A stretch of 64,000 nt of DNA from an uncultured Gemmatimonadales bacterium (GTDB taxonomy: Bacteria; Gemmatimonadota; Gemmatimonadetes; Gemmatimonadales; GWC2-71-9): contig CAVUAK010000001.1 of the NCBI GenBank assembly GCA_963739455.1, positions 1,408,001-1,472,000 on the forward strand. Reading direction: 5' to 3'. This document shows positions 2,670 to 57,465 of the stretch, in pieces. The notes beneath the pieces are model-generated. The model had not been told where the DNA came from. It did no database searches and was given only the letters and a program-made list of their open reading frames with translations. Every line of letters begins with the position of its first letter. The stretch's first letter is position 1. The position numbers and the translations under genes are program-made.

Positions 2670-2696
2670 AGGACGTGAGGACGTGAGGACGTGAGG
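2670..2696 (+). repeat. (AGGACGTG)x3 octamer tandem repeat
   Basis: Read directly; same unit at 49213 and related units at 57354 and 57423. Confidence 0.9.
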
Positions 2697-2699
2697 GGG

Positions 2700-2730
2700 G
2701 GCGGGCCGAGAGGGTCCGCCTTCTTCATTT
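2700..2730 (+). terminator. Probable intrinsic terminator after the G8 gene
   Basis: Stem GGCGGGCC-gagag-GGTCCGCC followed by TTCTTCATTT, between convergent genes. Confidence 0.6.
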
Positions 2731-2800
2731 GTGCCGCCGGGCGTTCGCCTGCGCCCTCGGTATCGGGCGCACGCGTCTTCCCTCTTCCCCGCCTCTCCTG

Positions 2801-4189
2801 TCACGTCCTCAACTCCGCCGGTACCTGCTCGATCATCACCCGTGTGATCGGGCGACGGAGGAGCGTGTACACCCGCAGCGTGAGGATGGCGGCGACGACC
2901 GCCAGGGCCGCGGCAAGGCCCCACCAGAGGCCTACAGGGCCCATGGAGGTATGAAAACCCAGGAGGAGGCTCAACGGGATCCCGAAGAGCCAGAAGCCGC
3001 CCAGGTTGATGAGCATGGGCACCCGGGTATCGCCGGCACCGCGGAGGATGCCGGCCGTGACGGCCTGCCCGCCATCGAAGAGCTGGAAGACGCCGGCAAC
3101 GGGCAGCAGTGTCGCGGCCAGGGCAATGGTGGCGACGTCGTTGGTGTACAAGTGCGCGAGCCAGTGCGGCACGGTGAGGAACATGAGGCTCGTGATCGCC
3201 ATGAACCCGACGCCATAGACGATCGCGGCGCGCGCCGCGCGGCGGGCGCTCGGCATGTCCGCGGCACCGATCGCGTGGCCCACGAGCACGGCCGCGGCCT
3301 GGCCCATACCGAGTGGCACCATGAACGTGAGTGAGGCGAGGTTGATGGCCACCTGGTGCGCGGCGACAGGAATGGTGCCGATGTGTCCCATCATGAGGCC
3401 CACGCCGCCGAAGGCGGTGAACTCGAGCGCGGTCTGGATACCGATGGGGAGGCCGAGGCGCAGCATGCGGCTGAGCGGTGCCAGTTCGAGCGTCTCGCGC
3501 CGCAAGGGGCGCAACGCGGGCCTGAGTTCGCGCCATGCAATCGCCAGCAGAATGAATGGCAGGATCCAGCGACCGATGGTGGTGGAGATCGCGGATCCGG
3601 TGACGCCCAGCGCGGGCGCACCGAGATGGCCGTAGATCAGCACCCAGTTCATGAAGCCATTGATGAGGTTGCCGACGAGGATGCTGATGACAATGGGCCG
3701 CACGGCGCGCAGCGCCTGGAGGCTCTGGCGTAGCACCACGAAGAGGTACAGGGGCAGCACGCCCGGCGCGCTCCACCGGGCGAACGCGCCGGCGAGGGGC
3801 ACCACCTCGGCCGGCTGGCCCAACCAGCGAAGCAGCGGCTCGGCATAGAGCAGCGCGATGACGACGGGAGCCGAAAGCCCGATGGCGAGGAGCAGGCCTC
3901 GCTGCACTCCACGCGCCACCGCGGTATGGTCCCTGGCACCAAGGGCCTGTGCCACGATCGGATCGAGGCCCGAGAGGGCACCCATGCCGAGAATGGCGCA
4001 GCCGAAGAAATACAGGTTGCCGAGGGCCACGGCGGCGAGCGCAGTGGCGGAGAGGTGGCCCACCATGATGGTGTCCACCACGCCCATCGCCATGATGCCG
4101 ACCTGCACCACCACCACGGGAAGGGCGAGGCGCAGCAGGGCCCGGCTCTCCTCCCCAGTGGGGAAGGCGCGGGCGACTACATTTCTCAT
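2801..4189 (-). CDS. MATE family efflux transporter (NorM-like)
   Basis: About 12 TM segments; LALPVV, VDTIMVGHL, LRLGLPIG, AAHQVA, QLFDG..GILRGAGDTR motifs. Confidence 0.93.
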   Translation of the reverse strand: MRNVVARAFPTGEESRALLRLALPVVVVQVGIMAMGVVDTIMVGHLSATALAAVALGNLYFFGCAILGMGALSGLDPIVAQALGARDHTAVARGVQRGLLLAIGLSAPVVIALLYAEPLLRWLGQPAEVVPLAGAFARWSAPGVLPLYLFVVLRQSLQALRAVRPIVISILVGNLINGFMNWVLIYGHLGAPALGVTGSAISTTIGRWILPFILLAIAWRELRPALRPLRRETLELAPLSRMLRLGLPIGIQTALEFTAFGGVGLMMGHIGTIPVAAHQVAINLASLTFMVPLGMGQAAAVLVGHAIGAADMPSARRAARAAIVYGVGFMAITSLMFLTVPHWLAHLYTNDVATIALAATLLPVAGVFQLFDGGQAVTAGILRGAGDTRVPMLINLGGFWLFGIPLSLLLGFHTSMGPVGLWWGLAAALAVVAAILTLRVYTLLRRPITRVMIEQVPAELRT

Positions 4190-6087: not shown

Positions 6088-6088
6088 G

Positions 6089-6158
6089 AACTGCGTGAGG
6101 AGGAACAGCAACTGCGTGAGGAGGAACTGAACAGCGTGAGGGGTGAGGGGTGAGGGGG
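6089..6158 (+). repeat. 21-bp repeat (AACTGCGTGAGGAGGAACAGC-like) x2-3 followed by (GAGGGGT)x3
   Basis: Read directly between convergent stop codons; same 21-mer at 25678, 36646 and 54471. Confidence 0.85.
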
Positions 6159-9137: not shown

Positions 9138-10364
9138 ATGAGACTCAACCCCTTCCGCGCCCTGCGTCCGCCCCCGGAAATCGCCGCCCAGGTGGCGTGC
9201 GTGCCGTATGACGTGGTCAACCGTGACGAGGCGGCATCGCTGGCGGCGGGGAATCCGCGCAGCTTCCTCCACGTCGGGCGCCCGGACATCGACCTGCCGG
9301 CAAGCACCGATCCGTACGATGCGTCGGTCTACGCCCAGGGCCGCAAGGCGCTGGACGGGTTCCTGCGCGACGGGACGCTGCTGCGTGATGCCGATTCCAC
9401 GGTGTACATCTACCGGCAGGAGATGGACGGGCGGGGCCAGACCGGCGTGGTGGGCAGCGTGCACGTGGATGACTACGAGAACGACATCATCCGGAAGCAC
9501 GAGAAGACGCGGAAGGACAAGGAAGACGATCGCACGCGCCACGTGCTGACGCTCAACGCCAACGCCGAGCCGGTGTTCCTGGCCTACCGCCCGAGTGCGG
9601 CGATCAATGCCGACGTCGCCGCTGCGGTGAAGGGGAAGCCGCTGTACGACTTCGTGGCCGATGACGGCGTGCGGCACATCGTGTGGAAGGTGGCCGACCC
9701 GTCGCCGTTGCTGCAGCACTTCGCCGAGGTGCCGCTGGCATACGTGGCCGACGGCCATCACCGCTCGGCCAGCGCCTGGCGCGCCGGACAGGAGCGCCGC
9801 AAGGCGAACCCGAAGCACACCGGCGACGAGGAGTACAACTGGTTCCTGGCGGTGCTGTTCCCGTCGGACGAGCTGGCGATCCTGCCCTACAACCGGGTGG
9901 TGAAGACGCTCAACGGCCAGACGCCGGCGGCGTTCCGCGACCGGCTTGCCCTGCTGGGCCGGCTCGAGGCGGTGACGGATTCGCGGCCACCGCGGCCGGG
10001 GTCGTTCGCGTTCTTCCTCGAGGGCCGCTGGTGGCTCCTCACCATGGACGAATCCACGATCGACCGCCGCGACCCGATCAGGTCGCTCGACGTGTCGCTG
10101 CTGCAGGAGCGGGTCCTGGCGCCGATCCTGGGCATCAGCGATCCGCGCACCGACAAGCGGATCGACTTCGTGGGCGGCATTCGCGGCGCGGCGGAGCTGG
10201 AGCGCCGGGTGACGAGCGGCGAGATGGTGCTCGGGGTCTCGATGTTCCCGACGACGATGGAGCAGCTGCTGGCGGTGTCGGATGCGGGCGAGATCATGCC
10301 GCCGAAGAGCACGTGGTTTGAGCCGAAGCTGAGGAGCGGATTGTTTGTGCACGAGTTGAGTTGA
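9138..10364 (+). CDS. DUF1015 family protein
   Basis: [26 protein letters not shown] and [16 protein letters not shown] motifs. Confidence 0.9.
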
Positions 10365-10387
10365 GGGTCGAGGGTCGAGGGTCGAGA
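10362..10387 (+). repeat. (GAGGGTC)x3 heptamer repeat overlapping the DUF1015 stop codon
   Basis: tGAGGGTC GAGGGTC GAGGGTC GAGAG read directly. Confidence 0.8.
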
Positions 10388-15021: not shown

Positions 15022-16614
15022 TCAGTCAGGGACGCGGCTGCGCCGGAGGGTGGGAGGTCGGGTTCCGCCGAGTGCGCGCGCGATGCGGCGCGAGGTAGGC
15101 GAAGACGAGGTGTTGTCGGATTCGTTGTCGAGCTGTGCGATGTGCGCCTGCAGCCAGTTGGCGAGGACCTGGTACTCGTCGGCCACTGACGGATCGTCGA
15201 AGGAGATGGTGTTGCCGCTGATCTCGTACTCACCCCAGTGCCCGAGCAGCAGGGTGTAGAGGTTGTCGGTGTAGGTGAGGAGGGAGTCGGAGAGCTCGGA
15301 TCCCTCGTAGCTCTCCTTGAGCGTGGCGCGGGCCTTCCAGTCGGACTGCTGGCCGCGGCTCCACCCCATGCGGGTCACCTGGTAGGTGACGGTGTCGCGG
15401 TAGGCCCGCTCGATCTGCACTTCATCGGAGTGGTAGACGCGCACGATGTTCTGCGCGCCGCGTGATGAGCCGTCGGCCGGCGCGGAGGCTGTCGCGACTG
15501 GTGAGGCGCGCAGTCGAGAAGAGGCGCGTCACACCGCCCAGGGCGAGGTCGGAATCCATGGCGGCGCGGGCGTTGGCGTACGCGGCGGCATAGCTGCGGC
15601 GCAGCTCGATGGGCGTCATGGGGCGCAGCCCCTCGACCGATGACCGCGGCTGCGACCCGGGGATGAGCCGCCCTGGCCGACTCGTGGCGCGCGGCCCCGT
15701 GCCTGCTGTCTCGGCCACGGCGAGCAGGGCGATCGCCTGCGCCAGGTCCCTGTCGGAGACGGAATCGACGGCCTGCACGGCGAGTGCGGTGTCACCCGGT
15801 GTACGGAGTCGGGCCTCGGTGGCCTGATGCACGGTCGCGGGACGATTGGACCACCACTGCCAGCCGAACCAGGCCCCGGTGCGAGACGAGCAGGACCAGG
15901 GCAACTGCCCCACCGATCAACGCCAGGCCGCGGAATCGCGGCTCCGGCTTCCACTCGAGCGGCTTGTACTCCGTCGAATCAGGCTCGTCCTCCGGCAGTG
16001 GCGCGAGCTCGCCGTCCAGCGGCGGCTCGTCCATGTAGGAAGTCGGCGATGGGATGGGAGCGCGGCCGCTCGTTGAGGGCGGGGAGGGCGGGGAGGGCGG
16101 GGAGGGCGGGGAAGACGGGGAAGACGGGGAAGACGGGGAAGACGGGGAAGACGCGATGGGGACGAGAGAAGGGATGGGTTCCTTCAGCGTCAGGAATTCA
16201 CCGGCGATCGCGAGTCCGTCGGCCGGCTTCACCTCCGGCGGCGCCGAGGCCATCTGCGCGGCGGTATCGATGGCGATGTCGGTATTGATGACGAGGTCGG
16301 CGATGGGGGCGACGGGCGGTTCAGGGACCTTGGGCGCCATGCCCTTGATCTCGGCGTCGCTCAGGAGATCGAAGTCGAGCCCGACCTCATCGGCGGTACC
16401 GTCCTCGGAAACGAAGCGCGTCCCGAGCTGCGGGTGCCGCGTGACCAGCACCCATTCCTTGGTTGCCGGATGAAAGATCAGCGCGTCCTTCGTGATCACG
16501 CCAAGCTCGACGTCCCAAACCATCTCTTCGACGGTTCGATACGTCTTCTCGTCTCCCGAAGGCAACCGGACGTAGTACACGGCTAGCGCACCGGGGTGAC
16601 GGGATGGGCGGCAA
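15022..16614 (-). CDS. Hypothetical membrane-anchored protein with a GYF_2-like N-terminus, Pro/Ser linker, TM helix and helical C-terminus; frameshifted
   Basis: N-terminal YYVRLPSGDEKTY..EEM...ELGVIT.DALIFH...EW segment, TM GLALIGGAVALVLL; ORFs 15792-16673, 15422-15913 and 15022-15444 join; start uncertain. Confidence 0.55.
16075..16153 (+). repeat. 9-bp G-rich tandem array (GGCGGGGAR / GACGGGGAA, about 8 units) inside a CDS
   Basis: Read directly; encodes [24 protein letters not shown] on the minus strand. Confidence 0.9.
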
Positions 16615-16693: not shown

Positions 16694-17302
16694 TCAGGCC
16701 TCGAGGCGGGTCAGGGAACGCGCAATGTTGGCGCGGGCGCGCGGTTCGCGGGACTGCATCACCGGGGTGAAGAAAAGCGGCCGCCGGGACGCAAAGTCGG
16801 CGAGGATCGTGGCGCGCCCAGCGCGGAACTGGCCGGCCGGGAGCATGGCGTACTCGGCGCGGATGGCGTGTTCGTACGCGTCAAAGGCATCGTCATCGGC
16901 GGCCAGGATGGAGAGGTCGGCGTCGCGCACGACGGCGGCGTCGGGTGATACAGACGCGGCGGCGAGGTGGCGGGTTTCGAGTATGAGGGCGGGGAAGACG
17001 GGGAGGGCGGGGAGGGCGGGGAGGTGCTCCATTCCCCATTCAACGCTCCGCTGCTCGCAATCGTTTCGCATCGGCTCCCAGACGACGTCGTGCAGCCACA
17101 GGGCGAGTTCCGCTACGTCCGGATTGGGGGCGAGGTGGCGGAGCTCGTCGAACGTGGCGAGCACTGCGTCGAGGTGCGCGAGGGTGTGATAGTGCCGACC
17201 GGGTGCGGAGTACTGACGCTCGAGCTCGGCAAAGGCGTCGTCGGAGGGCACAGTACCGAGGCGCTGCCAGAGCGCATCCCAGCGCGCCCGGCGCGGGGTC
17301 AT
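16694..17302 (-). CDS. HD-superfamily metal-dependent phosphohydrolase (COG4339-like)
   Basis: [31 protein letters not shown] motifs; start overlaps the selO stop (ATGA). Confidence 0.85.
16985..17024 (+). repeat. 9-bp G-rich array x4, in frame inside the HD hydrolase gene
   Basis: Encodes [13 protein letters not shown]. Confidence 0.88.
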
Positions 17303-20991: not shown

Positions 20992-21021
20992 AGGGCGGGG
21001 AGGGCGGGGAGGGCGGGGAGG
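20992..21021 (+). repeat. 9-bp G-rich array (AGGGCGGGG)x3, intergenic
   Basis: Read directly. Confidence 0.85.
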
Positions 21022-21057
21022 TTAGCCGCCCCACCCGCCTCCCGCGCCTTCCCGGTC

Positions 21058-23046: not shown

Positions 23047-23142
23047 CAGTCGGCAGTCGGCAGTCGTCAATCGGCAAGGAGTCGTCAGTCGACGTAAGTG
23101 GCTGTTGACTCTCTGACGACTGTCGACTGCCGACTGCCGACT
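23047..23142. repeat. Heptamer arrays (CAGTCGG/CAGTCGT) arranged as an inverted pair
   Basis: cagtcggcagtcggcagtcgtc ... ctgacgactgtcgactgccgactgccgact. Confidence 0.85.
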
Positions 23143-24409: not shown

Positions 24410-25687
24410 ATGCGCGTGACTGACGAGCGAGCGGAAGGTCCGGGAAGAATCGTGATCGTCGGTGCCGGCGCGACCGGTACGATGGCGGCAATTTTCGCGG
24501 CCGAGGCTGCCGCGTTGCGGTTGCCCCGGCGTGAGGTGTTGCTGCTGGAGCGGACGCAGGATGGGGGGCGGAAGATCCTCATCAGCGGTGGCGGACGCTG
24601 CAACATCCTCCCGTCGAAGGTCGACGTGACGCGGTTCGTCACCGACTCATCGACCAACAGCCTGCGCAACATCCTCAAGGGCTGGCCACTGGAGGAGCAG
24701 GTTCGCTTCTTCAACGAGCGGCTCGGCCTCGACCTTACGCTCGAGGAGGAGAGCGGGAAGCTCTTTCCGCGATCGAACAAGGCGCGGGACGTGCGCGACG
24801 GGCTGCTCGCGCTGGCGACGTCGGTCGGTGTGCAAATGCGCTTCGGCGTGACAGTGGAGAGCGTGGAGCCGCCGGGCAGGCTGGGCGAGGAATGGCAGGT
24901 CGTGTTGACGGGCGGCGAGCGGATTGCAGCAAGTGCCGTGGTGCTGGCGACGGGAGGGCTCTCGGTGCCGGCGACGGGGAGCGACGGCACGGGGCTCCGG
25001 GTCGCGGCAGCGCTGGGGCATGAAATGCATCCTACTTATCCGGCGCTCACCCCACTCACGGCGAATGAACCTCGACACTCGGCGCTCTCGGGGATTTCGC
25101 TTCCCGTCACACTGGGCGCACGGGTGGATGGGAAGCGATTCAGTGCCACCGGTGGATTCCTGTTCACGCACAGGGGGTACAGCGGGCCATCGGTGCTGGA
25201 CCTGTCGCACCTCGCGGTGCGGTCGCGGCTCGGGGGTATGGCGAGGCAGGAGATCACGGTGCAGTGGACCCCACTCGACGCTGCAGCCTGGGAGGAACGG
25301 CTCCGCGCCGGCGGGACGGTGCACGTGGGTACGCTGGTGCGGCGCGAGCTGCCCGAACGCCTGGCGGAGATGGTGCTGGCGTCGGCGGAAGTGAATGGTT
25401 CCACGCCGGCGGCGCAGCTCAAGCGCGACGATCGACAGCGCCTGGTGACGGCGCTCGCGAGCATGGCCCTGCCGTGGACGGGCGATGAGGGCTACAAGAA
25501 GGCAGAGGTGACGGGCGGAGGTGTCGCTCTCAGTGAGATCGATCCACGGACGATGGAGAGCCGGCGGCACCGAGGATTGTTCCTGTGTGGTGAAATGCTG
25601 GACGCGTTCGGGCCGATCGGGGGATACAACTTCTTGTGGGCGTGGGCGACGGGGAGGGCGGCGGGGATTGGAGCGGGAACAGCATGA
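24410..25687 (+). CDS. HI0933/YhiN/BaiN family flavoprotein
   Basis: IVGAGATG, GRKILISGGGRCN, ATGGLS.P.TGSDG, FTHRGYSGP, VTGGGV, GPIGGYN..WA..TG. Confidence 0.93.
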   Translation: MRVTDERAEGPGRIVIVGAGATGTMAAIFAAEAAALRLPRREVLLLERTQDGGRKILISGGGRCNILPSKVDVTRFVTDSSTNSLRNILKGWPLEEQVRFFNERLGLDLTLEEESGKLFPRSNKARDVRDGLLALATSVGVQMRFGVTVESVEPPGRLGEEWQVVLTGGERIAASAVVLATGGLSVPATGSDGTGLRVAAALGHEMHPTYPALTPLTANEPRHSALSGISLPVTLGARVDGKRFSATGGFLFTHRGYSGPSVLDLSHLAVRSRLGGMARQEITVQWTPLDAAAWEERLRAGGTVHVGTLVRRELPERLAEMVLASAEVNGSTPAAQLKRDDRQRLVTALASMALPWTGDEGYKKAEVTGGGVALSEIDPRTMESRRHRGLFLCGEMLDAFGPIGGYNFLWAWATGRAAGIGAGTA

Positions 25688-25727
25688 GGAGGAACCGCAA
25701 CTGCGTGAGGAGGAACTACGACTGCGT
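25678..25727 (+). repeat. 21-bp repeat family copy containing the stop codons of both convergent genes
   Basis: aacagcaTGAggaggaaccgc aactgcgtgaggaggaaCTAc gactgcgt. Confidence 0.85.
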
Positions 25728-29423: not shown

Positions 29424-31298
29424 TTGCCGGAGTCGCCACACAACGTCCGATTTCCCATCATGGCACCGCCGCGTCCGTCGACGGTGCATGAGGTTGCGTC
29501 CGCGTCCGACGCCGGTCGCCGGCGGGGTCGCAACGTGGACGCGGTCGCCGTCTTGGGCCTTGGGCTGCCACAGGACGACCTCGACATCGTGGTGCTCGCG
29601 GTGTCGGATGGCCTGGGCGAGCATGCGCGGGGTGACGGCACCAGTTCGGTGGCGGTCGAGGCGTTCGGGGATGCGCTGGGCGGGCTGGTGGGTTCGCTGC
29701 ATATCGGGCCGCGCTGGCAGTTCGCGATGGCGGAGATCGTGGAGACGGCGGTGGCCGACACGAACGCGAGGGTTCGCGCGCTGCCGGAGGTGAGCGACGG
29801 CGTGCCGGCGGCCACCACGCTCACGGCGGCGGTCCTGATGGGCGACTGGCTCTGTGCGGTGCACGTGGGGAACAGCCGGGTATACCGGTTGTCGGCGAAC
29901 GAGCTGGAGCAGCTCACCGAGGATCATGCGCAGGACCCGCTCGCGCTGCTCACGCCGCCGCGCGAGGACATGCTCACGATCAACGACACGGGGCGCCTGG
30001 CGTCGGCGCTGGGCGTGTCCGAGGTGGCGACGCCGAGCGTGCTGTTCCGGCGGATAGCGCCGGGTGACGTCATCGCGGTGTGCAGCGATGGCCTGCATGA
30101 GCAGCTGGAGGGTGAGGAACTCGCGCGGCTGCTGAATGCGCCCGGTTCGCTGGAGGACATCGCGGCGCGGCTGGTGGCCGCGGCGAATGCGCATGGGGGC
30201 GACGACAACGTCAGTGTTTGCCTGGCGCGGGTGGGGAAGGTGACGACCCGGCTCCCGGCCCCGGATGAGCGGGCGGCCCGCCTGTACGGCGACGTCGCGG
30301 CGACGATCCTGCCGAGGTACCAGGCGGAGGCTCCACGGCAATGGCTGCCCGACCGGATCGGGCTGGTGGCGGGATTCCTGGGTTCGCTGGTGTTGCTGGT
30401 GGGGTTCGTGGCGTGGGATGGTTATAAGGCGGGGAAGGCGGGGAAGGCGGGGAGGGCGGGTGAAGAGAGGGCGGGGATGGCGGGGATGGCGGGGAAGGCG
30501 GGGAAGGCGGGAGACGTTCTCGCAGAGTCGGTGTGGAGTGCGGGGCCGGCACCTGCGCCGCCCCCGGTGGCGGTGGCAGCAGATACGCACGCCGTTGCAG
30601 AGAAGCCGACCAAGTCGGCTGTGAGTATCGACTCGACCCCGCGTGTTCCGTCGGCGGTGGTTGCGGACTCGATCGCGGGGGCACTGGCCCTCAAGCGAGA
30701 GGCGGCGCAGGAAAAGGTGCAGCGCCTGCGCGATTCGCTGGTCGAGTCGCGCATGGCGGAGGCGGAGCGTCAACGGCGCGACTCGGTGGAACTGGCCGAC
30801 GCGGCCGCGGTGAGGCTGGCAGAGCAGCGCTCGCGAGATTCCTCTGCCGCCGCCGAGAAGCACCGGCGCGACTCGGTCGAGGCACAGGAGCGGGTGGAGG
30901 CGCAGGCGCGGGCGGCGGCGCAGGCGGAAACGACGCGGGTGACCCAGGAGCGCTTGCGGGAGACGCGGCTGGCCTCGGGGCGCGCGGCGCTCAACGGGTG
31001 GTTGCAGCGCGTGGTCGCAGCGGTGAGTGCGGGAGAATCACACGCGGCGGTACTGACGGCGGGGCCATCGAGCTTTGCCGCGTTCGTGGAGAAGAACAGC
31101 CCGAAGATCTCGGACGCGAGCATGACGTCGCTCGAGGTGGATGAATCATCGGGCGAGGCGACGGCGGAGTGGCTGCTCAAGTGGCGGAGCAACTTCGGCA
31201 CGGCGACACAGCGACGGGTGAAGGCATCGGCGACGGTGGTGCGCGATGGAGAGACATGGCGCCTGCTGGGGTGGAAGATTCTCGAGGGGGAGCCGTGA
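29424..31298 (+). CDS. PP2C-like Ser/Thr phosphatase domain plus TM helix and coiled-coil extracytoplasmic tail
   Basis: SD.GRRR..NVD, VSDGLG, TTLT, HVGNSRVY, QLTEDH, CSDGL, GG.DNVS; TM IGLVAGFLGSLVLLVGFV. Confidence 0.82.
   Translation: MPESPHNVRFPIMAPPRPSTVHEVASASDAGRRRGRNVDAVAVLGLGLPQDDLDIVVLAVSDGLGEHARGDGTSSVAVEAFGDALGGLVGSLHIGPRWQFAMAEIVETAVADTNARVRALPEVSDGVPAATTLTAAVLMGDWLCAVHVGNSRVYRLSANELEQLTEDHAQDPLALLTPPREDMLTINDTGRLASALGVSEVATPSVLFRRIAPGDVIAVCSDGLHEQLEGEELARLLNAPGSLEDIAARLVAAANAHGGDDNVSVCLARVGKVTTRLPAPDERAARLYGDVAATILPRYQAEAPRQWLPDRIGLVAGFLGSLVLLVGFVAWDGYKAGKAGKAGRAGEERAGMAGMAGKAGKAGDVLAESVWSAGPAPAPPPVAVAADTHAVAEKPTKSAVSIDSTPRVPSAVVADSIAGALALKREAAQEKVQRLRDSLVESRMAEAERQRRDSVELADAAAVRLAEQRSRDSSAAAEKHRRDSVEAQERVEAQARAAAQAETTRVTQERLRETRLASGRAALNGWLQRVVAAVSAGESHAAVLTAGPSSFAAFVEKNSPKISDASMTSLEVDESSGEATAEWLLKWRSNFGTATQRRVKASATVVRDGETWRLLGWKILEGEP
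30426..30513 (+). repeat. 9-bp G-rich array, in frame just after the TM helix of the PP2C-like gene
   Basis: Encodes [29 protein letters not shown]. Confidence 0.88.
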
Positions 31299-31882
31299 TG
31301 ATAAAGGCGGGGAGGGCGGGGAGGGCGGGGAAGGCGGGGAAGGCGCTGGGGTTCCTATTGCTACTTGCGGTGCCGCTCGCGGCGCAGTCGCGGGAGCTCG
31401 TATCCGTCCAGGTGTCCGGGGAACTGGTGTTCCCGACGGAAGACTACGGTGTACTGGAGAAGAGCGTGACGCTTGGGTGGGAGGCGCAGGCGCGCCTCAC
31501 GTTCGGGCGCTTCTCGGTCGGTGCCGGCTACCAGCGGAGCACGGTGTTCAAGTCTGACGCGAGCGTCGGGGATATCACGGCGACGCTGTCGGTGGGCTTC
31601 GTGGAACCGAGATATGTGCTGGGGGTGTTCGGGAATGTGGCGGCGCCCTATGTGGCGGCGCGACTCGGTTACGGCGGGCTGCTGATCCGCTCGCCGAGTG
31701 ACCTGGTCCGCTCGACGGAGAACTCGTTCATCTACGGCGGCGGCGCGGGCGTGATCTTCCAGCTGGCGCAGCGGGTCGGCATCGACCTCGGCGCACAGTA
31801 CTTCGTCGCGGACTTCACTGGGAACCAGGGAAGCGCGGGTTATTTCCTCACTCGACTTGGGGTGTCTGTTGGTCTCTTCTAG
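31298..31882 (+). CDS. Outer membrane beta-barrel protein (8-stranded, OmpA/OmpW-like)
   Basis: Signal peptide ending PLAA-Q, amphipathic beta strands, PYV.ARLGYG, YGGGAGV, C-terminal Phe. Confidence 0.75.
   Translation: MIKAGRAGRAGKAGKALGFLLLLAVPLAAQSRELVSVQVSGELVFPTEDYGVLEKSVTLGWEAQARLTFGRFSVGAGYQRSTVFKSDASVGDITATLSVGFVEPRYVLGVFGNVAAPYVAARLGYGGLLIRSPSDLVRSTENSFIYGGGAGVIFQLAQRVGIDLGAQYFVADFTGNQGSAGYFLTRLGVSVGLF
31304..31345 (+). repeat. 9-bp G-rich array forming the n-region of a signal peptide
   Basis: Encodes [14 protein letters not shown]. Confidence 0.85.
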
Positions 31883-35307: not shown

Positions 35308-35353
35308 TGAGTCGGCAGTCGTCAGTCGGCAGTCTACAGTGAGTCGTCAGTCG
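35308..35353 (+). repeat. Heptamer array (AGTCGGC/AGTCGTC family)
   Basis: gagtcggcagtcgtcagtcggcagtctacagtgagtcgtcagtcg. Confidence 0.8.
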
Positions 35354-35410: not shown

Positions 35411-36655
35411 GTGACTGCCCCCGGCCTCATATCCCGGATTCCCGGGTCCCTTCCTGCGCTCCGTTCCCGGAACTTCCGGTTGTTCATCACCGGCCAGCTC
35501 ATCTCGTACACCGGATCGTGGCTGCAGACGGTGGCGCAGGGGTGGCTGGTGCTGCAGCTGTCCAACTCCGCGTTCATCGTGGGACTGGTGACGGCGCTGG
35601 GGTCGCTGCCGATCCTCCTGTTCACGCTGTATGGCGGGGTGCTGGCGGACCGGGTAAACCGCCGGAAGACGGTGATGGTCCTGCAGGCCTTGCTGGCGGT
35701 GGAAGCGCTGGCGCTGGCGATCCTCGTGGTCCTCGGACACGCCACGGTGCACTGGATCATGGGGCTGGCGCTGTTCACCGGGCTGGTGACGGCGTTCGAG
35801 GTCCCGATCAGGCAGTCGATGGTGGCGGAGCTGTCGGGTCGGGAGTCGCTCATGAACGCGATCGCGCTGCAGTCGTCGGTGTTCAACCTGGCGCGCGTGC
35901 TGGGGCCCGCGTTCGCCGGGGTGATCATCGGGATCTGGGGCGTGGCCGCGTGCTTCTTCCTCAACGCAGCCAGCTTCCTTGCGGTGATCTGGGGACTGTG
36001 GCGGATGGACCTTCCCAATACGCCACCAGCCAAGCCAGGGGTGGACGTGATCGCGGCGTTCAAGGAAGGGGCTCGCTACGTGCGGCATGAGCGGTGGCCG
36101 CGCGCGCTCATGATCCTGATCGCCTCCACGACAATCTTCGGCTTCTCGTTCCTGGCGATGCTGCCGGTGTTCGCCCGCGACGTGCTGGGAAGCGATGCCG
36201 GCGGGTATGGTGCGCTGGTGTCGTCGGTGGGCGTGGGCGCCCTGTCGGGTGCGCTCTTCCTGGCGGCGTTCGGCGGCGCCATGCGGAAGCGGCGTCTCGC
36301 GCTCATTTCCGCGGCGGGCTTCGGGACTGCCCTGGTGGCGACGGCGCTCGCGCCGAACTACTGGGTGGCGTTCGGGTTGCTGGCGGTGGTGGGGTGCAGC
36401 ATGGTATTGCAGAGCATCAGCGCCAACACGCTGCTGCAGCAGGAGGCACCGGATCACCTGCGTGGCCGGGTGATGGGCTTCTACTCGTTCGTGGTGCTGG
36501 GGATGGCGCCATTCGGGGCGCTGCAGATCGGGTGGGTGTCACAACACTTCGGGACCCGGGTGGCGTTTGGGCTGGGCGGGGCGCTGTGTGTGGCGGTCGC
36601 GATTTATGTGTGGAGGGTGGTGGTGGTGGGGCGGAGAGGAACCACAACAGCGTGA
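35411..36655 (+). CDS. MFS transporter (MFS_3/DUF894 type)
   Basis: ALRSRNFRLF..GQ.IS..GSWLQ.VAQ.WLV, GGVLADR.NRR, FNLAR.LGPA, LRGRVMG. Confidence 0.92.
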   Translation: MTAPGLISRIPGSLPALRSRNFRLFITGQLISYTGSWLQTVAQGWLVLQLSNSAFIVGLVTALGSLPILLFTLYGGVLADRVNRRKTVMVLQALLAVEALALAILVVLGHATVHWIMGLALFTGLVTAFEVPIRQSMVAELSGRESLMNAIALQSSVFNLARVLGPAFAGVIIGIWGVAACFFLNAASFLAVIWGLWRMDLPNTPPAKPGVDVIAAFKEGARYVRHERWPRALMILIASTTIFGFSFLAMLPVFARDVLGSDAGGYGALVSSVGVGALSGALFLAAFGGAMRKRRLALISAAGFGTALVATALAPNYWVAFGLLAVVGCSMVLQSISANTLLQQEAPDHLRGRVMGFYSFVVLGMAPFGALQIGWVSQHFGTRVAFGLGGALCVAVAIYVWRVVVVGRRGTTTA

Positions 36656-36698
36656 GGGGGAACTGCGACTGCGTGAGGAGGAACTGCAACTGCGGAGG
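36646..36698 (+). repeat. 21-bp repeat family copy containing the MFS stop codon
   Basis: aacagcgTGAgggggaactgc gactgcgtgaggaggaactgc aactgcggagg. Confidence 0.85.
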
Positions 36699-36704: not shown

Positions 36705-37343
36705 TTGATCATCACAATATCCCGGCAGTTCGGGGCGGGCGGCGCCGAGGTGGCGAAGCGGGTCGCGGACCGGCTGCAGTGGCGCGTGGCGGACAATGAG
36801 TTCGTCGATCGCGTCGCGGCGCGGGCGGGGCTCACGCCCGATGAAGTGGCACTCCGGGAGGAGCGGGTGCCCAATTTCATCGAGCGACTGGCCTGGGCGC
36901 TCGCTTCCGCCTCGGCGGAGCTGGCGGTGCCGACCGGTGCCACGATGGAGGGATTGAGCGAGCCGCTGATGGTGCGGGTGACGGAGAGTGTCGTCGCGGA
37001 GATTGCGCGCGAGGGACGGGTGGTGCTGGTGGGGCGCGGTGCCGCCGCCGTGCTGGGAGAACGGGAGCGGACGCTGCACGTGCAAGTGGTGGCACCGGTT
37101 GGCATCCGAGCGGAGCGGATTGCGGGGCGGCTCAACATCCCGGTGGAGGAGGCACGAAAGAAGATCCAGGAGACGGACGGGCGGCGGGCCAAGTATCACA
37201 AGGAGTACTACGGGCGGGACTGGGCGGATCCGGTGAACTATCACATCGTGATCAACACGGGATACCTGGGCCTGGACGGAACGGCGGACCTGGTCGTGCG
37301 GGAAGCGGGGAGGAGGGGGTGGGCGTTTCGACAACAGTCGTGA
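36705..37343 (+). CDS. Cytidylate kinase-like family protein
   Basis: IITISRQFGAGG, VVLVGRGA, R.ERIA, D..RA.Y..YY..DW.DP.NY...INT. Confidence 0.9.
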   Translation: MIITISRQFGAGGAEVAKRVADRLQWRVADNEFVDRVAARAGLTPDEVALREERVPNFIERLAWALASASAELAVPTGATMEGLSEPLMVRVTESVVAEIAREGRVVLVGRGAAAVLGERERTLHVQVVAPVGIRAERIAGRLNIPVEEARKKIQETDGRRAKYHKEYYGRDWADPVNYHIVINTGYLGLDGTADLVVREAGRRGWAFRQQS

Positions 37344-37369
37344 GTCGTGAGTCGTGAGTCGTCAGCCGT
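37335..37369 (+). repeat. (GAGTCGT)x4-5 heptamer array containing the stop codon
   Basis: cagtcgT GAgtcgt gagtcgt gagtcgt cagccgt. Confidence 0.85.
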
Positions 37370-38879: not shown

Positions 38880-38984
38880 GGAGGGCGGGGAGGGCGGGGA
38901 AGGCGGGGAAGGCGGGGAAGGCGGGGAAGGCGGGGAAGTTGTATGGCTTCGCGTCCTCCCCGTCTTCCCCGCCCTCCCCGCCTT
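38880..38984. repeat. 9-bp G-rich array x6 with an inverted C-rich partner x3 (hairpin) in a divergent promoter region
   Basis: (GGCGGGGAR)6 at 38880-38938; cctccccgtcttccccgccctccccgcc at 38955-38984. Confidence 0.88.
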
Positions 38985-41022: not shown

Positions 41023-41059
41023 AGGCGGGGAAGGCGGGGAAGGCGGGGAGGGCGGGGAA
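41023..41059 (+). repeat. 9-bp G-rich array x4, intergenic
   Basis: Read directly. Confidence 0.85.
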
Positions 41060-45656: not shown

Positions 45657-45720
45657 AAGGCGGGGAGGGCGGGGAGGGCGCGTAAGGCGGGGAAGGCGGG
45701 GAAGGCGGGGAAGGCGGGGC
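45657..45720 (+). repeat. 9-bp G-rich array, about 6 units, in a divergent intergenic region
   Basis: Read directly. Confidence 0.85.
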
Positions 45721-48314: not shown

Positions 48315-49214
48315 GTGACAATCTCGAGGGGTTCCATTGCACTGGGCTTCCTGCTGGTTGCCGGTCGCGCCAATGCCCAGGCGCCGTTCAATGCCTGCTT
48401 CGACCGGCTGGGGCAGCCGATTCCCACTGTCGCGGACGACGCGATTGGCCGGGGAGGTGTCGCGACCTACCAGGGAGGCCAACGCGTCATCCTCTGGAAC
48501 AGCGACGCGAACAAGAGCGCGTCAGCAACCACGCAGCTGTTCCTGTACCTCCGCGCCTGCGCGCACCACAACCTGGGGCACCTCCAGCAGCGCGCGAGCG
48601 CGCAGACCGAGGGCGAGGCCGATTGCTGGGCCATCCAGCTGATGGTGGATGGCGGCATGATCGGAAGCCGCAACCTCGACCTGCTGCAGAAGGAGCAGGT
48701 GGCGGTGCGGGGAGACAGCACGCGCCTGAGCGGGAAGGCGTTGATCGACAGCTATGAGCGGTGCCTGACCATCAGGACGGATGCCAGTGCGTGGGCCGAC
48801 GCGCTGTCGGCATTCACCGCGGCGGCGCCCGACAGCTTCGGTGCGATTCGCGGGCACCCGGTGGAGGACGCGATGCCGGGAATTCACCAGTCGAGGCAGG
48901 ACGCGCCGGGCACGTACGATTGCGAAGTCCGGGGAATGGACTCGGTTCGCTGCATGGTGTTCGCGGCGCGAAAGACGAGTGCGGCTCGGAAGCGCTACCA
49001 GGAACTGATCAAGATCTTCCGGGGGTGGTTGCCGCCCACATGGACATCGGTCGAGCAGGAAGGCACGGCGAGCCTGGTGGAGCGGCAGTTCCTGGCGCAG
49101 GACAGCGAGAACAACACCGTGATCGCGCTGCTGGTGACGTCTGAGGCGCGGGTGTACTTCGTGGTGCGAAGGATGGCGGCTGACGTGAGTTCGATACAGC
49201 TGCAGGGAGATTAG
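48315..49214 (+). CDS. Secreted hypothetical protein with a degenerate zincin/M48-like N-domain
   Basis: Signal ending ANA-Q; FLYLRACAHHNLGH ... EGEADCWA resembles HExxH...ExxAD; GC-rich codon usage. Confidence 0.7.
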   Translation: MTISRGSIALGFLLVAGRANAQAPFNACFDRLGQPIPTVADDAIGRGGVATYQGGQRVILWNSDANKSASATTQLFLYLRACAHHNLGHLQQRASAQTEGEADCWAIQLMVDGGMIGSRNLDLLQKEQVAVRGDSTRLSGKALIDSYERCLTIRTDASAWADALSAFTAAAPDSFGAIRGHPVEDAMPGIHQSRQDAPGTYDCEVRGMDSVRCMVFAARKTSAARKRYQELIKIFRGWLPPTWTSVEQEGTASLVERQFLAQDSENNTVIALLVTSEARVYFVVRRMAADVSSIQLQGD

Positions 49215-49240
49215 GACGTGAGGACGTGAGGACGTGAGGG
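49213..49240 (+). repeat. (AGGACGTG)x3 octamer starting inside the TAG stop codon
   Basis: Read directly; same unit and copy number as the array at 2670. Confidence 0.9.
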
Positions 49241-52659: not shown

Positions 52660-52690
52660 GGGAACAGGGAACGGGGAACAGGGAACAGCA
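52660..52690 (+). repeat. (GGGAACA/GGGAACG)x4 heptamer array
   Basis: gggaaca gggaacg gggaaca gggaaca gcaacg. Confidence 0.8.
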
Positions 52691-52793
52691 ACGCGGGGAG
52701 AGGGAAGAGGGAAAGCGGCTGCGGGTAGAGGGACCCCGCGTGGAAGTCGCGGGATTGCCGCGTCGGCCGCGTTGCGGCCTCCTCAGCAATGAC

Positions 52794-53921: not shown

Positions 53922-53922
53922 G

Positions 53923-54468: not shown

Positions 54469-54470
54469 GC

Positions 54471-54525
54471 GACTGCAACAGCGTGAGGAGGAACTGCGAC
54501 GGCGTGAGGAGGAACTGAAACAGCG
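54471..54525 (+). repeat. 21-bp repeat family copy
   Basis: gactgc aacagcgtgaggaggaactgc gacggcgtgaggaggaactga aacagcg. Confidence 0.85.
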
Positions 54526-54532
54526 GGCATGA

Positions 54533-55925
54533 TCAGGGTCCTCCTTTCAGGGCAGACAGCATTTCGGGGATGCGGGTGAACTTCTCTCGCGGGGCGCCGC
54601 GGGTCTTGCCGGCGGCCTGCTCGAGTTCATCCAGCTTCTTCCAGTCGGCGAAACGTCACGACCTGCACGCCACGGGACTTGAGCATCTGATCGACCGCGG
54701 TACGGATACCGCGTGCCTTCGGCTTGAGGGCGCCGCTCGCCACATCCTCCAGCAGCAGGTCAACCGTCTCGGCGGAGTCGGGCTTGTTGGTGCCGATGAC
54801 GCCGCTCGGGCCACGCTTGATCCAGCCGACCGCGTATACCCCGGCGAGCATCTCCATGGCACCCGGTGCCACGAGCACGCGTCCCTCGACATTGGGAATG
54901 ACGCCGGCGCGCTGGTCGAATGGCACGCCCGGAATCGCCACGCCCTTGTAGCCCACGGAACGAAAGATGAGGCCGGCAGGTAACGTTTCGGTCTCGCCGG
55001 TGGCCTCGGCGCGAAGCTCACCATGCGGCGCCCGCACCAGGCGGTTCCTCGAAATCTTCACTCCTTCCACACGATTGCTACCGAGTATTTCTACGGGCGA
55101 CACGAGGAACCGAAGCACGATGCGGCGCTTCCGCCCCGATGGCTTGCGCTCGGCGAACTGGTGCAGGGTGTGAAGGTTCTTCTCCGCGGTGCGGTCCTCG
55201 TGGCCGGTGAGCTGGTGCGCGCTGTGCTCATCGAGCTCGAGTTCGCGAGGGTCCACCACCACATCCGCCTCAGCGAGCTCGCCCAGCTCCTTGAGCTCGG
55301 GATTGGTGAACGCGGCCTGCGCTGGACCGCGGCGACCGAGCACGTAGATGGTACCCACCTTGCTGGCGCGGAGCTCCTCGAGCGCGTGACCCGAGATGTC
55401 GGTGGGGGTGAGCTCGTCCATGCTGCTCGCCAGGATGCGGGTGACATCCATGGCGACGTTGCCCATGCCGACAATGACGGCGCTGGTGGAGCCGAGCTCG
55501 AAGCGCCGATCGCGATAGTCGGGGTGCCCATTGTACCAGCCGACGAACTCGGTGGCGGCATGACTCCCGGCCAGTTCCTCGCCCGGTATGCCAAGGTGCC
55601 GGTCGGTCTGTGCACCCGAGGCATAGATGACGGCGTCGTACAGCGCGTGCAGCTCGGAGTGATCGATGCTGCTGCCGATCCTCACGTTGCCGAGAAAGCG
55701 AAAACCGGGATGTGCGGCAATCCGCTCGTACATGCGGGTGACCGACTTGATCTTGGGATGATCGGGCGCCACGCCGCCGCGCACCAACCCATACGGTGTC
55801 GGCAGTCGATCGAACATGTCGATCTCGACGGCGGGCACCTTCTTCTGCAGGTGCTCCGCGGCGTAGAACCCCGACGGGCCGGACCCGACGATGGCAACGC
55901 GGAGCGATCCAGGCTGGGCAGTCAC
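54533..55925 (-). CDS. fprA: Ferredoxin--NADP+ reductase (FprA/adrenodoxin reductase type); frameshift near 54650
   Basis: IVGSGPSG, PYGLVRGGVAPDH, FVGWYNGHP, G.GNVAMDV, GRRGP.QAAF, GWIKRGPSGVIGTN. Confidence 0.9.
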
Positions 55926-55926
55926 G

Positions 55927-57465
55927 TCAGCGTCCCTTCATCATCTCGACCACAACGCTATCGAGCTGGGTGAGTATGGCCGAGCTGGGCAAGGTGTGGT
56001 GGTTCGCCTGCACCGAGAACGTGATGACCTTGCCGCTCTCGAGGTTTACCCAGCCCGAAAGCGTGTTGGTGCGCGAGATGCTGCCGGTCTTGGCATGCAC
56101 GCGCCCCTCGATGGGTGTCCCGACGAACCGGTTCTTGAGCGACCCGCGCTGGCCGGACTGCGGCAGCCCGGCAGTGAACGTGGCCGCATGCGGGTGGGTC
56201 CGGATGAACCGCAGCACCTGGGTGAATGCCAGCGGGCTCACCAGGTTGGACGCGGCGAGCCCCGAGCCATCAACGAGCGCGATCTGGGTGGAGTCGACGC
56301 CAATCGAGTCGATGAGGAAGCGGCGCTCGATGCGGAGGCCCTCATCCCAGCTGCCGGCGCGACCGAACTGCTTCCCGAGCTGCTTCAGGGTCATCTCGGC
56401 GTACCAGTTCTGGCTGGTGTTCAGGATCGGGAAGATCCAGTCCTTGAGCGGGCGGCTGGTGACCTCGGCGAGCGGCGTGCCGCGGCGCACGATCTCGAAC
56501 GTCATGGAGTCGGTGGTCGAGCGCGTGGTGCCAAGGACTGCGATGCCCTGTGCCGCGAGAGCAGCGCGCAGCGCCCGCGCAGCGAACATGTTGGGATCGG
56601 GCAGGGCGAAGGACTCGGTGCGGGGGCGGCGCCCCGCCTCGACGTTGCCCTGGGCCCAGACGGAAAGCGTGCCCGCCGTGCGGAAGAAGTCGATGGTCTC
56701 GTCCTGCCCGCGGGCGACCGTCTTCGTCTGGTTGTCGAGGGTGACGTCACCGAAATCGGGGGTAAATGTCAGCGTTGCGGGCGGGCCCACGCTGTCGCCA
56801 GTGGAGTACTTGATGTCGATGCTGTTGTCGTTGTAGCCGAGCCCGCTCACTGGTGCCGCGTACCACCAGTTGAGGTCGTAGCCCTCCCATGCGGGGTGCA
56901 CGATCATGGGCTCGAACCAGCTCCCGTCTCCCACCACGTTGCCGGACACGGAGGTGATGCCGGCACGCGCGAGCTGGGTGGCGAGGTCGCTGAGCTTCTG
57001 CATCGGGTTCGTGTCGCAGGCGCCTGCCACGGTGGTATCGACGGCGTAGCAGCGCTCACTGAAGGTCGGGTCGCCGCGGCCGTAGAGCACCAGGTCTCCC
57101 TGCAGCACGCCATTCACGACGGGACCGCTGCCGTAGAGGCTCGTCCGCACGGTGAAGTCGGGCGAGAAGAGCGCGGCGGCGACGGCGCTCACCACGATCT
57201 TGGTGTTGCTCGCGGGCACGAACAGGCGATCGGCGTTGCGACCGTAGAGCAGGGTGCCCTTGTCGTCCACGAGAGCGACGCCCCAGAGCTGGCGGTTGTA
57301 CGGCGGCTGGTCCAGCCGGGAGTCAAGTCGCTTCTGAAGAGACGCCGCCTGGGCGTGAAGACGTGAAGACGTGAAGACGTGAGGTGACAGTAGGACAAGA
57401 AGTGTGAGAACCGCAAGGAATCTCCTCACGTCCTCACGTCCGCACGTCCTCACGTCCTCAGTCAT
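55927..57465 (-). CDS. dacB: D-alanyl-D-alanine carboxypeptidase/endopeptidase PBP4 (S13); alternative start GTG at 57429
   Basis: SxxK in PASNTK, G.GDP, SxN in SQN, DGSGL, KTG. Confidence 0.93.
   Translation of the reverse strand: MTEDVRTCGREDVRRFLAVLTLLVLLSPHVFTSSRLHAQAASLQKRLDSRLDQPPYNRQLWGVALVDDKGTLLYGRNADRLFVPASNTKIVVSAVAAALFSPDFTVRTSLYGSGPVVNGVLQGDLVLYGRGDPTFSERCYAVDTTVAGACDTNPMQKLSDLATQLARAGITSVSGNVVGDGSWFEPMIVHPAWEGYDLNWWYAAPVSGLGYNDNSIDIKYSTGDSVGPPATLTFTPDFGDVTLDNQTKTVARGQDETIDFFRTAGTLSVWAQGNVEAGRRPRTESFALPDPNMFAARALRAALAAQGIAVLGTTRSTTDSMTFEIVRRGTPLAEVTSRPLKDWIFPILNTSQNWYAEMTLKQLGKQFGRAGSWDEGLRIERRFLIDSIGVDSTQIALVDGSGLAASNLVSPLAFTQVLRFIRTHPHAATFTAGLPQSGQRGSLKNRFVGTPIEGRVHAKTGSISRTNTLSGWVNLESGKVITFSVQANHHTLPSSAILTQLDSVVVEMMKGR
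57354..57460. repeat. Inverted pair of octamer arrays, (CGTGAAGA)x3 and (CTCACGTC)x4, in the dacB 5' end
   Basis: Read directly at 57354-57383 and 57423-57460. Confidence 0.88.

Follow-up and report, generated by a model that had tools for sequence, protein, structure and literature searches.

Dispersed G-rich repeats of the heptamer type have long been known in cyanobacteria and Xanthomonas, without a mechanism or a function attached to them. Here we describe repeats of this general kind in a 64,000-nucleotide stretch of DNA (the window; G000:C1:1408001-1472000) from an uncultured soil-type Gemmatimonadales bacterium, where short tandem arrays of several unit families all present their G-rich strand on the + strand. 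Cyanobacterial STRR heptamers resemble these arrays in that several families per genome lie dispersed in non-coding DNA; they have no known mechanism, and we know of no report of replication-linked polarity for them.

The closest known systems are the G-rich heptamers described by Rehm et al. in 2015, GGGAATC in Xanthomonas and GGGGA(C/T)T in Nostoc PCC 7120 (PMC4692102). In that study, the Xanthomonas repeats combine proximity to the 5' open reading frame (ORF) with "convergent" inverted pairs, and the Nostoc repeats show the same 5' proximity with few inverted pairs. Like them, the arrays described here are dispersed tandem blocks of G-rich units (7 nt there) that are mostly intergenic, lie nearer to the 5' ORF whatever its direction (28 vs 160 nt there; median 1-5 vs 80-160 nt here), occur near stop codons on the coding strand, and vary in length and sequence among close relatives; no function was found for the published repeats. 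Unlike the Xanthomonas and Nostoc repeats, which use one unit per genus, families of 7-, 8-, 9- and 21-nt units coexist here and replace each other at junctions, and whereas the published repeats showed no leading/lagging preference, single arrays here are 97% polarised at strong skew. G-quadruplex (G4) formation was measured for the Xanthomonas and Nostoc repeats; here it is a predicted potential, with 144 of 453 arrays carrying four or more runs of at least three G and none of these in the 8-mer, AGTCGKC or 21-mer families. A second parallel comes from the TAACTGA heptamer direct repeats of Beggiatoaceae, cyanobacteria and Bacteroidetes (MacGregor 2015, PMC4679880), which likewise form many intergenic arrays (169 sets in one genome) a few nt from coding sequence, with no evident means of spread. 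Those repeats are A/T-rich, gene-oriented and placed just upstream of start codons, suggesting a translational role, whereas the arrays described here are G-rich and oriented with skew. In the open-access literature on Gemmatimonadota we found no description of such arrays, nor of the saw-tooth skew described below.

The source assembly comprises 3.6 Mb in four contigs at 67% G+C and is 83.7% complete by marker genes. Assemblies are referred to by the labels G000 (the source), G001, G003, G006, G007, G008 and G009, and loci by labels such as L005 and L056. Arrays were called with Tandem Repeats Finder (TRF) in the window and across the whole genome, and the window loci were also read directly together with their flanks. 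Genes were mapped with our own crude ORF picker, based on high GC at the third codon position, and with Pfam, 49 window ORFs being scanned; by this map the window holds ordinary housekeeping genes, with both strands coding.

An earlier reading of the same DNA (the original prediction) had listed about 21 arrays from several families, all polarised alike, and every locus was recovered by TRF and by direct reading. At all 21 the first or only array is G/purine-rich on the + strand (two-sided binomial p = 9.5e-7). The loci (Table 1) comprise eight of the 9-mer GGCGGGGAR, three of the 8-mer AGGACGTG/AAGACGTG, four of a 21-mer, three of AGTCGKC/G, and single loci of GAGGGTC, GTGAGGG and GGGAACA. 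C-rich array copies occur at 23113, 38955 and 57423 only, each as the downstream arm of an inverted pair, and polarity disregards the direction of flanking genes, window arrays being sense for + genes and antisense for - genes; both statements had been made in the original prediction. A double 9-mer with at most one mismatch matches 30 times in the window and not once in any of 100 dinucleotide-preserving shuffles, so the arrays lie far beyond chance. Most of them adjoin a coding boundary: those at 6088, 10363, 36636, 37336 and 49213 begin at or inside the stop codon of a + gene, and a - gene has its start codon 3-11 nt away from each of those at 35310, 41023, 45657 and 54472. The earlier placement of arrays between genes holds for 19 of the 21 loci, which lie between ORFs or overlap last or first codons only, but fails for 30426-30511 and for the pair at 57354-57460, both inside open reading frames.

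The window is not special in this respect: genome-wide, the strand that carries the G-rich array follows the sign of local GC skew. Whole-genome TRF returned 1080 non-overlapping arrays, the top families numbering 50 and 19 loci (9-mers), 45 and 19 (8-mers), 33 (GGGAACA) and 28, 15 and 15 (AGTCGKC types), and the window families recur on both strands in similar numbers, at tens of loci per family. Along contig C1, purine-rich versus pyrimidine-rich arrays per 100 kb number 0 vs 24 where the skew is -0.104, 29 vs 2 at +0.077 and 35 vs 3 at +0.111. With arrays masked in the estimate of local skew, single arrays agree with its sign in 48 of 74 cases (0.65; 44 per Mb) where |skew| is below 0.03, in 116 of 134 (0.87; 114 per Mb) at 0.03-0.06, and in 155 of 160 (0.97; 211 per Mb) at 0.06 or more. 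Arrays with a reverse-complement partner behave otherwise, standing at 20-28 per Mb in all |skew| classes, and inverted-pair arms make up 8 of the 13 arrays found discordant in the highest class. The window itself has positive skew in all sixteen 4-kb bins (0.057 to 0.162) and lies within one ramp of about +0.1 that ends in a sharp switch at C1: 1,486 kb, 14 kb past the window end; its arrays are uniformly + because all 64 kb fall in this one strongly positive ramp. The comparison of orientation with skew that the original prediction had proposed thus gave a non-random outcome, polarity flipping with the sign of skew. The reading that we favour, with a probability of roughly 0.5, is that the genome-wide polarity of these G-rich 7-, 8-, 9- and 21-base arrays is likely set by replication, the arrays being born by slippage or template switching and then lost in an orientation-dependent manner.

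The skew that the arrays follow is a strand-wide mutational asymmetry, due neither to transcription nor to gene orientation, because top-strand skew in the window region (28 + and 34 - genes) is positive at third codon positions of both + genes (+0.145) and - genes (+0.240) and in array-free intergenic DNA (+0.096); where skew is zero, third positions of + and - genes give about -0.05 and +0.05. Arrays total 2.3 kb per 80 kb and are too short to generate it. A role for arrays as local sources of domain skew was ruled out, the background being 0.044 on both sides (1-6 kb upstream and downstream) with no step. Close to the arrays there is a halo in which skew of the G-rich strand climbs to about 0.2 over the 50-100 nt that immediately precede the 5' edge; it is confined to at most 300 nt upstream, often inside the neighbouring gene, and a dip follows at 50-100 nt downstream.

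The G-rich strand is likely the leading strand. The dnaA gene, with rpmH and dnaN, lies at C1: 880-883 kb, and a cumulative-skew maximum coincides with a gene-strand switch at about C1: 2,460 kb; the window falls between dnaA and this maximum, so that + as leading strand is what the standard model predicts. Where |skew| is 0.03 or more, 32 of 43 tRNA genes lie on the G-rich strand, a count that clusters inflate. On contig C2 (497 kb) nearly all genes are on the - strand, with a bias of -0.5 to -0.9 over most of its length, and this is its G-rich strand; the skew there is only -0.03 and arrays are few. A terminus-proximal region of high gene-strand bias has been reported for Gemmatimonadota (PMC11237797), and C2 is probably one arm of it.

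Inverted pairs obey a rule of their own. Across the genome, 40 have the G-rich arm first, none the C-rich arm first and 6 are neutral, in keeping with the original prediction's three window cases; of 453 arrays, 99 are followed and 2 preceded by a reverse-complement partner. By gene context the rule covers tandem (25), convergent (11), divergent (3) and intragenic (7) settings, and it recurs in congeners, in 5/5 close pairs of G008 and 2/2 of G003. Skew cannot yield this order, because a pair with its G-rich arm first reads alike on both strands. Except as the 3' arm of such a hairpin, C-rich arms hardly ever persist. Arrays also have a fixed 5' edge. Taken along the G-rich strand, this edge lies within 5 nt of a stop codon in 91 of 120 G-sense arrays vs 14 of 89 C-sense arrays, and in a check that uses no gene calls, stop triplets stand at the edge of 48% of arrays vs 26-30% further upstream. 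Of 298 arrays, 193 have an upstream gene that points the same way as their G-rich strand, and these lie a median of 1-5 nt from that gene and 80-160 nt from the downstream one; for the remaining 105, the medians are 103-192 nt upstream and 67 nt downstream. Considering genes of 200 aa or more, 16 of 36 arrays that face an opposite-strand start codon sit within 15 nt of it. The mean genic fraction is 0.42 for periods not divisible by 3, on an ORF map that is crude and rough at gene ends.

It is conceivable that the replisome makes arrays strand-specifically, such that a nascent G-rich 3' end, probably on the leading strand, slips or switches template. Same-strand fold-back would then yield hairpin pairs with the G-rich arm first, and arrays would be polarised from the start. 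Oriented birth of this kind is a serious rival, since it explains both the G-arm-first rule, across all four gene contexts and in the G008 and G003 pairs, and the 5' edge flush with upstream coding sequence; we nonetheless consider it unlikely. It predicts constant total density, but density rises five-fold with |skew|, and it predicts a concordance equal to the proportion of forks travelling in each direction, which the observed values outrun (by our own reckoning, with skew taken as proportional to that share). Moreover, at least one family with the C-rich arm first, GCTATCC then GCGGATA, exists at 4 loci in other Gemmatimonadales. A filter against one orientation fits the five-fold rise of single arrays, and the flat density of partnered ones, better than oriented birth alone.

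Arrays beside stop codons and pairs that fold into long hairpins (DNA fold z = -5.5 to -8.2 in the window) could instead be elements acting at the level of RNA—G-rich starts of 3' untranslated regions, C-rich leaders or hairpin terminators—placed by selection on gene expression. We give this a slim chance. The preference of G-sense arrays for stop codons suits it, as does the inverted pair at 38880, which may be terminator-like, since the orthologous junction in congeners shows a plain hairpin or other repeats with the same type of tail: in five of them (L140-L144) it ends in (C/T)ATTTGTG, TTTTGTG or AAATGTG. Tails of the TTCATTTGTG type follow hairpins at two window junctions, at about 2721-2733 and 38983-38995, the former belonging to a separate hairpin with a T-rich tail downstream of the 2670 array (about 2697-2733). 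A perfect 17-bp hairpin in the interval 39555-39601 (hairpin and T tail to 39591) holds the 21-mer core CAGCGTGAGGA in its arms, G-rich arm first, ahead of a T-rich tail, and would possibly link repeat units to terminator stems. The analogous Xanthomonas repeats were found to be transcribed (Rehm et al., PMC4692102). But polarity follows skew and not gene direction, TTT occurs within 15 nt after only 5% of single arrays, some congeners lack an array at certain junctions, and a scan of 30-50 kb for terminator-like sites (loops of 3-8 nt only) gave 11 vs 7.5 +/- 3 in shuffles, none of them an array pair. Action on RNA could hold for the pairs without explaining the polarity. An Rfam scan of the window returned no family at or above its gathering score, and among the 19 public sequencing runs listed the best share of sampled words was 0.07, and no RNA run containing them was listed.

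Comparison with relatives shows that arrays turn over rapidly at fixed positions. A triple 9-mer occurs in only two of 41 genomes of the order, G000 (68 matches) and its congener G003 (8 matches), and a triple 8-mer in 5 of the 12 from the genus; each species has a unit repertoire of its own. In G006, a single 3.54-Mb contig collinear with C1 (reversed), C3 and C2 (reversed), concordance holds for 20 of the 24 8-mer loci whose interpolated |skew| is at least 0.03, and the polarity reverses between 1.907 and 1.942 Mb, at the position orthologous to the 1,486-kb switch. Loci on one contig of G008 share a strand (5/5 on C5, 4/4 on C17). In a set of 80 loci of about 4 kb from other genomes, 6 were concordant vs 5 discordant, a comparison that is underpowered. 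Ten window junctions could be bridged in congeners, where the spacer holds other unit families or no array at all, so that the comparison of orthologous junctions suggested in the original prediction turned up filled, differently filled and empty sites. For instance, the 35310 junction carries GAGTCNA or AACGGTG arrays, or nothing; that at 36636 carries 21-mers, AGTCGTC or GGTGAAC arrays; that at 37336 is a bare 2 nt in G008 but has a 21-mer array in both G001 and G003; and that at 41023 has GGCGGGTAG or GACGTGAG arrays, or a short spacer. Likewise, the 45657 junction has 8-mers in G006 and GGGAGAC 7-mers in G008, the 52660 junction 21-mers, 8-mers or other units, and the 54472 junction AACGGTR pairs, GAGTCAA or AGTCGTG arrays, being empty in G007 and G009. 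The 57354 pair is kept as a pair at 5 of 11 bridged congener loci (L005, L006, L007, L009 and L011), in L009 with different units. For six of the ten junctions, the same strand is the G-rich one in 23 of 27 bridged spacers; three of the four that differ come from the hairpin-pair junction at 38880. The 49213 junction was not bridged, only its right flank being matched. Further afield, the junction after the DUF1015 gene (that of array 10363) bears heptamer arrays in many Gemmatimonadales metagenome-assembled genomes, with none found at loci from other phyla. Because the same unit families sit at orthologous junctions of independent congener assemblies, some of at least 200 contigs, the arrays are not an artefact of one assembly or platform.

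This turnover bears on the proposal that ordinary slippage arrays are polarised passively, G-rich words simply being commoner on the G-rich strand. Polarity does scale with the net G minus C of the unit: the neutral AGTCGTC is unpolarised (7/13), whereas AGTCGGC stands at 17/19 and AGTCGTG at 9/9, so G-richness matters and not one specific word. Isolated single units outside arrays match compositional expectation as well, with concordance of 0.57-0.80 vs 0.50-0.77 expected for 9 of 10 units (GGCGGGGAG 24/31 = 0.77 vs 0.77; AGGACGTG 20/33 = 0.61 vs 0.65; GAGGGTC 51/77 = 0.66 vs 0.65). Passive polarisation is nevertheless improbable. Isolated AAGACGTG departs from expectation (2/12). Chance seeds are insufficient, as the shuffles show, and 9-mer array loci (75 genome-wide, 61 of them at |skew| of 0.05 or more) outnumber the 56 isolated 9-mers found at |skew| of 0.07 or more. 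AGTCGGC reaches its 17/19 with a net G minus C of only +1, for which a hand calculation of the compounding gives about 0.6-0.65. Species at about 80% identity already have different arrays in place of one another, and replacement this fast implies that polarity is set at or soon after birth and not by slow substitution. Finally, the strand-symmetric 40:0 order of hairpin arms is beyond skew. The original prediction had named a full explanation of polarity by G-skew as grounds for its rejection; skew accounts for direction only, and leaves the existence of the arrays, their density, the 97% polarity and the 40:0 rule unexplained.

Oriented protein-binding sites offer another comparison. KOPS and Chi are single dispersed octamers, recognised by proteins and conserved within a species group. 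As with KOPS or Chi, the G-rich words described here are co-oriented with replication, and sites of this type could guide a DNA translocase or recombination enzyme along the replichore. Polarity along the presumed leading strand and a density that peaks beside the sharp skew switches would suit such a role, as would the GAG form of the 9-mer array, which has GGGGAGGG at each unit junction, a word that we take to fit the E. coli KOPS consensus. We regard this as very unlikely all the same: here the words form tandem blocks of changing sequence at gene ends and not dispersed single motifs, at least five unrelated unit families are polarised alike, isolated units carry no bias beyond composition, and units differ between sister species at one junction, the triple 9-mer being confined to G000 and G003.

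An equally far-fetched possibility, in our view, is that the arrays are scars or cargo of mobile elements, or products of a dedicated enzyme such as a reverse transcriptase, a REP-associated transposase or a telomerase-like repeat adder. REP, BIME and REPIN sequences, associated with RAYT transposases, are short intergenic repeats that often form inverted hairpin pairs, much as some of these arrays do, and an orientation bias tied to single-stranded DNA at forks has been proposed for REP elements; more generally, single-strand transposons insert with replication-linked orientation. Identical units at tens of loci, the 27-nt array that is identical at 2670 and 49213, and species-specific repertoires are also what spread by an enzyme would produce. 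REP units, however, are imperfect palindromes of 20-40 nt that depend on a Y1 transposase, unlike the non-palindromic tandem 7-9-mers here, which have no conserved ends, flanks or target duplication at 181 array loci of 5 families. RVT_1 (PF00078) and Y1_Tnp (PF01797) each had 0 matches in G000, whose 83.7% completeness means that absence is not proven; controls in 14 reference genomes were positive in 3 and 6, the Y1_Tnp control accounting for 6/14. The scanned window ORFs include no transposase, integrase, reverse transcriptase or other mobile-element gene, which bears out the original prediction's remark that neither a transposase nor a reverse transcriptase is present. Its interpretation fared unevenly. 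The replication-oriented part found support, in that polarity and density track skew and polarity does so in G006 too; templated addition by dedicated machinery, scars of a small mobile cassette and binding sites like KOPS or Chi found none, given the lack of matches to the two enzyme families in the 83.7%-complete assembly, the lack of conserved non-repeat flanks and, for binding sites, the composition-level bias of isolated units, the many unrelated polarised units and the 7/13 of AGTCGTC.

In essence, the favoured reading—polarity set by replication through orientation-dependent loss—invokes birth followed by a filter. Arrays would probably arise by slippage or template switching at gene ends, and template switching from one array to another, or gene conversion among them, would probably carry their units to further loci. 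Those whose G-rich strand serves as the leading-strand template would likely be lost (we infer loss here rather than oriented birth), and a C-rich arm would survive when paired in a hairpin. A precedent of matching sign is the yeast CEB1 minisatellite, a G-rich, G4-forming repeat whose stability depends on which template carries the G-rich strand (PMC7063842); by analogy, the orientation that is stable in yeast corresponds to that of the arrays here, provided that their G-rich strand is the leading one. CEB1 was studied by experiment in a eukaryote in a helicase-mutant background, whereas here units without G4 potential are polarised too and the pattern is known from sequence alone.

Several points weigh against this reading. 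Fork direction in this organism is itself deduced from its DNA sequence, and C1 has at least four sharp switches from + to -, beyond what one origin and one terminus would give. Units without strong G4 capacity are nearly as polarised as those with it (0.90, n = 114, vs 0.97, n = 67), so a G4-specific mechanism is insufficient. Slippage leaves the presence of one 9-mer at 75 array loci unexplained, isolated copies of that 9-mer numbering 31 against roughly 37 expected from composition (a hand estimate). Per-base skew compounded over 2-3 units predicts, by hand calculation, a polarity of 0.65-0.97, near that of the most G-rich units, and the neutral AGTCGTC shows none. The absence of leading/lagging preference in the Xanthomonas repeats (PMC4692102) means that orientation-dependent loss is not general for such arrays. 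In addition, the gene map rests on our own crude ORF picker, and indel errors in the assembly may affect array copy numbers. Some genes look split, namely those at 11284-12237 and 40069-40350 in the window and at L056:9251-10352; the fragments comprise parts of an aminotransferase (178 aa) and of GCV_T (93 aa) and a phosphate-binding protein present as two ORFs.

Individual loci add some detail to Table 1. The composite at 6088, a 21-mer followed by GAGGGGT, recurs at two other genome loci, and the AGTCGKC unit of the 23047 pair is nearly neutral in G minus C. In frame, the 9-mer array at 30426 encodes KAG-type amino-acid repeats in a PP2C-domain protein. Both arms of the 57354-57460 pair fall within the predicted signal-peptide coding part of an S13 peptidase gene (- strand, ATG at 57465; MTEDVRTCGREDVRRFLAVLTLLVLLSPHVFTSSRLHAQ...), whose ATG overlaps the stop of the upstream permease gene. 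The order of GAG and GAA variants within 9-mer arrays shows no trend (+: 6 G-then-A vs 2 A-then-G; -: 5 vs 8). Near the window start, a 15-nt array of CGGAGGAACCAAAAG x2.3 at 31-64 is purine-rich on +, and GGAGGAAC is common to it and the 21-mer.

Table 1. Tandem arrays and inverted array pairs of the window, with the strand on which the array is G/purine-rich (a point marks inverted pairs)
Positions	Repeat	Strand	Evidence and context
2670..2696	AGGACGTG x3.4	+	TRF, direct reading; begins 25 nt past stop of + ORF 2273-2644
6088..6157	composite: 21-mer x2.7, then GTGAGGG x3.1 (from 6136)	+	directly after TAG stop of ABC-transporter ORF 4240-6087
10363..10386	GAGGGTC x3.4	+	first unit overlaps TGA stop of DUF1015 gene (9114-10364)
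16080..16153	9-mer x8.2 (CGGGGAGGG, then CGGGGAAGA)	+	TRF, direct reading, shuffles
16985..17024	9-mer x4.4	+	TRF, direct reading, shuffles
20992..21054	9-mer x3.3 (20992-21021), then degenerate C-rich inverted copy (about 21026-21054)	+	fold z = -2.6
23047..23142	inverted AGTCGKC pair (23047-23076, 23113-23142)	.	between two - genes; DNA fold -37.2 kcal/mol, z = -8.2
25678..25727	21-mer x2.4	+	spans stop of + ORF 24410-25687, reaches stop of - ORF 25716-27725
30426..30511	9-mer x9.9	+	inside open frame 29424-31298 (PP2C-type domain at N-terminus)
31304..31345	9-mer x4.7	+	begins 5 nt past stop of ORF 29424-31298
35310..35353	AGTCGKC x3.4-3.6	+	3 nt from CAT (- strand start codon)
36636..36698	21-mer x3.0	+	MFS gene 35339-36655 ends within first unit
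37336..37362	AGTCGTG x3.9	+	provides TGA stop of cytidylate-kinase-like gene 36705-37343
38880..38982	inverted 9-mer pair: G-rich arm 38880-38938, C-rich arm 38955-38982, TTCATTTGTG tail	.	DNA fold -44.2 kcal/mol, z = -6.6
41023..41059	9-mer x4.1	+	11 nt upstream of - strand start codon (HAD hydrolase gene)
45657..45719	9-mer x7.0	+	10 nt upstream of - strand start codon (LON-domain gene)
49213..49239	AGGACGTG x3.4	+	overlaps TAG stop of ORF 48231-49214
52660..52733	GGGAACA x4.1, then degenerate 21/28-nt units	+	TRF, direct reading
54472..54525	21-mer x2.6	+	3 nt upstream of GTG start, cobalamin adenosyltransferase gene (- strand)
57354..57460	inverted 8-mer pair: CGTGAAGA x3.6 (57354-57382), TCCTCACG x4.8 (57423-57460)	.	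DNA fold z = -5.5

Beyond the arrays, the skew landscape itself is unusual in form: a saw-tooth of gradual ramps from about -0.1 to +0.1 with sharp drops at C1: 77, 779, 1,486 and 2,460 kb. It is common to two species at about 80% identity, since in 40 syntenic samples from G006 the values correlate with a Pearson r of 0.76 and share their sign in 35; conservation of this kind means that the saw-tooth is neither an assembly error nor a recent rearrangement. The four C1 switches have no repeats in common, and the 27 ORFs scanned around them are ordinary housekeeping genes only. A search for dif-like sites gave no convincing match; it turned up one weak palindrome at C3: 395,700, away from the skew switches. 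A cluster of DnaA-box-like words, the only one in the genome, lies in the window at 52531-52598 (TTCTCCACA, then tandem TTATCCAC-TTATCCACA), upstream of a gene of the sigma-70 family (51493-52422, -), and skew does not change across the cluster; exact TTATCCACA has two copies in 3.6 Mb, one in this cluster and the other just upstream of dnaA. A tentative and rather doubtful extension is that the arrays record fork direction and so expose an unusual replication programme of at least five domains, in each of which skew and polarity climb linearly between about -0.1 and +0.1 before an abrupt reversal. A single origin with a single terminus does not predict four or five repeats of a ramp at full amplitude, whereas such linear ramps would be expected if initiation were dispersed and independent of an origin, with forks meeting at fixed sites, and the result might be a bacterial counterpart of the skew N-domains of eukaryotes, with sharp termini in place of sharp origins.

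Set beside the dispersed repeats of cyanobacteria and Xanthomonas, what is new is a strong and graded tie to skew, which separates skew-dependent single arrays from skew-independent hairpin pairs; a strict, strand-symmetric rule that the G-rich arm comes first, pointing to events on a G-rich 3' end; and unit families that quickly take each other's place at fixed junctions when sister species are compared. Should the polarity correspond to fork direction, such arrays would be usable as a probe of replication direction in uncultured bacteria that needs nothing but sequence. A saw-tooth skew conserved in two species would, for its part, question the picture of one origin and one terminus for this group.

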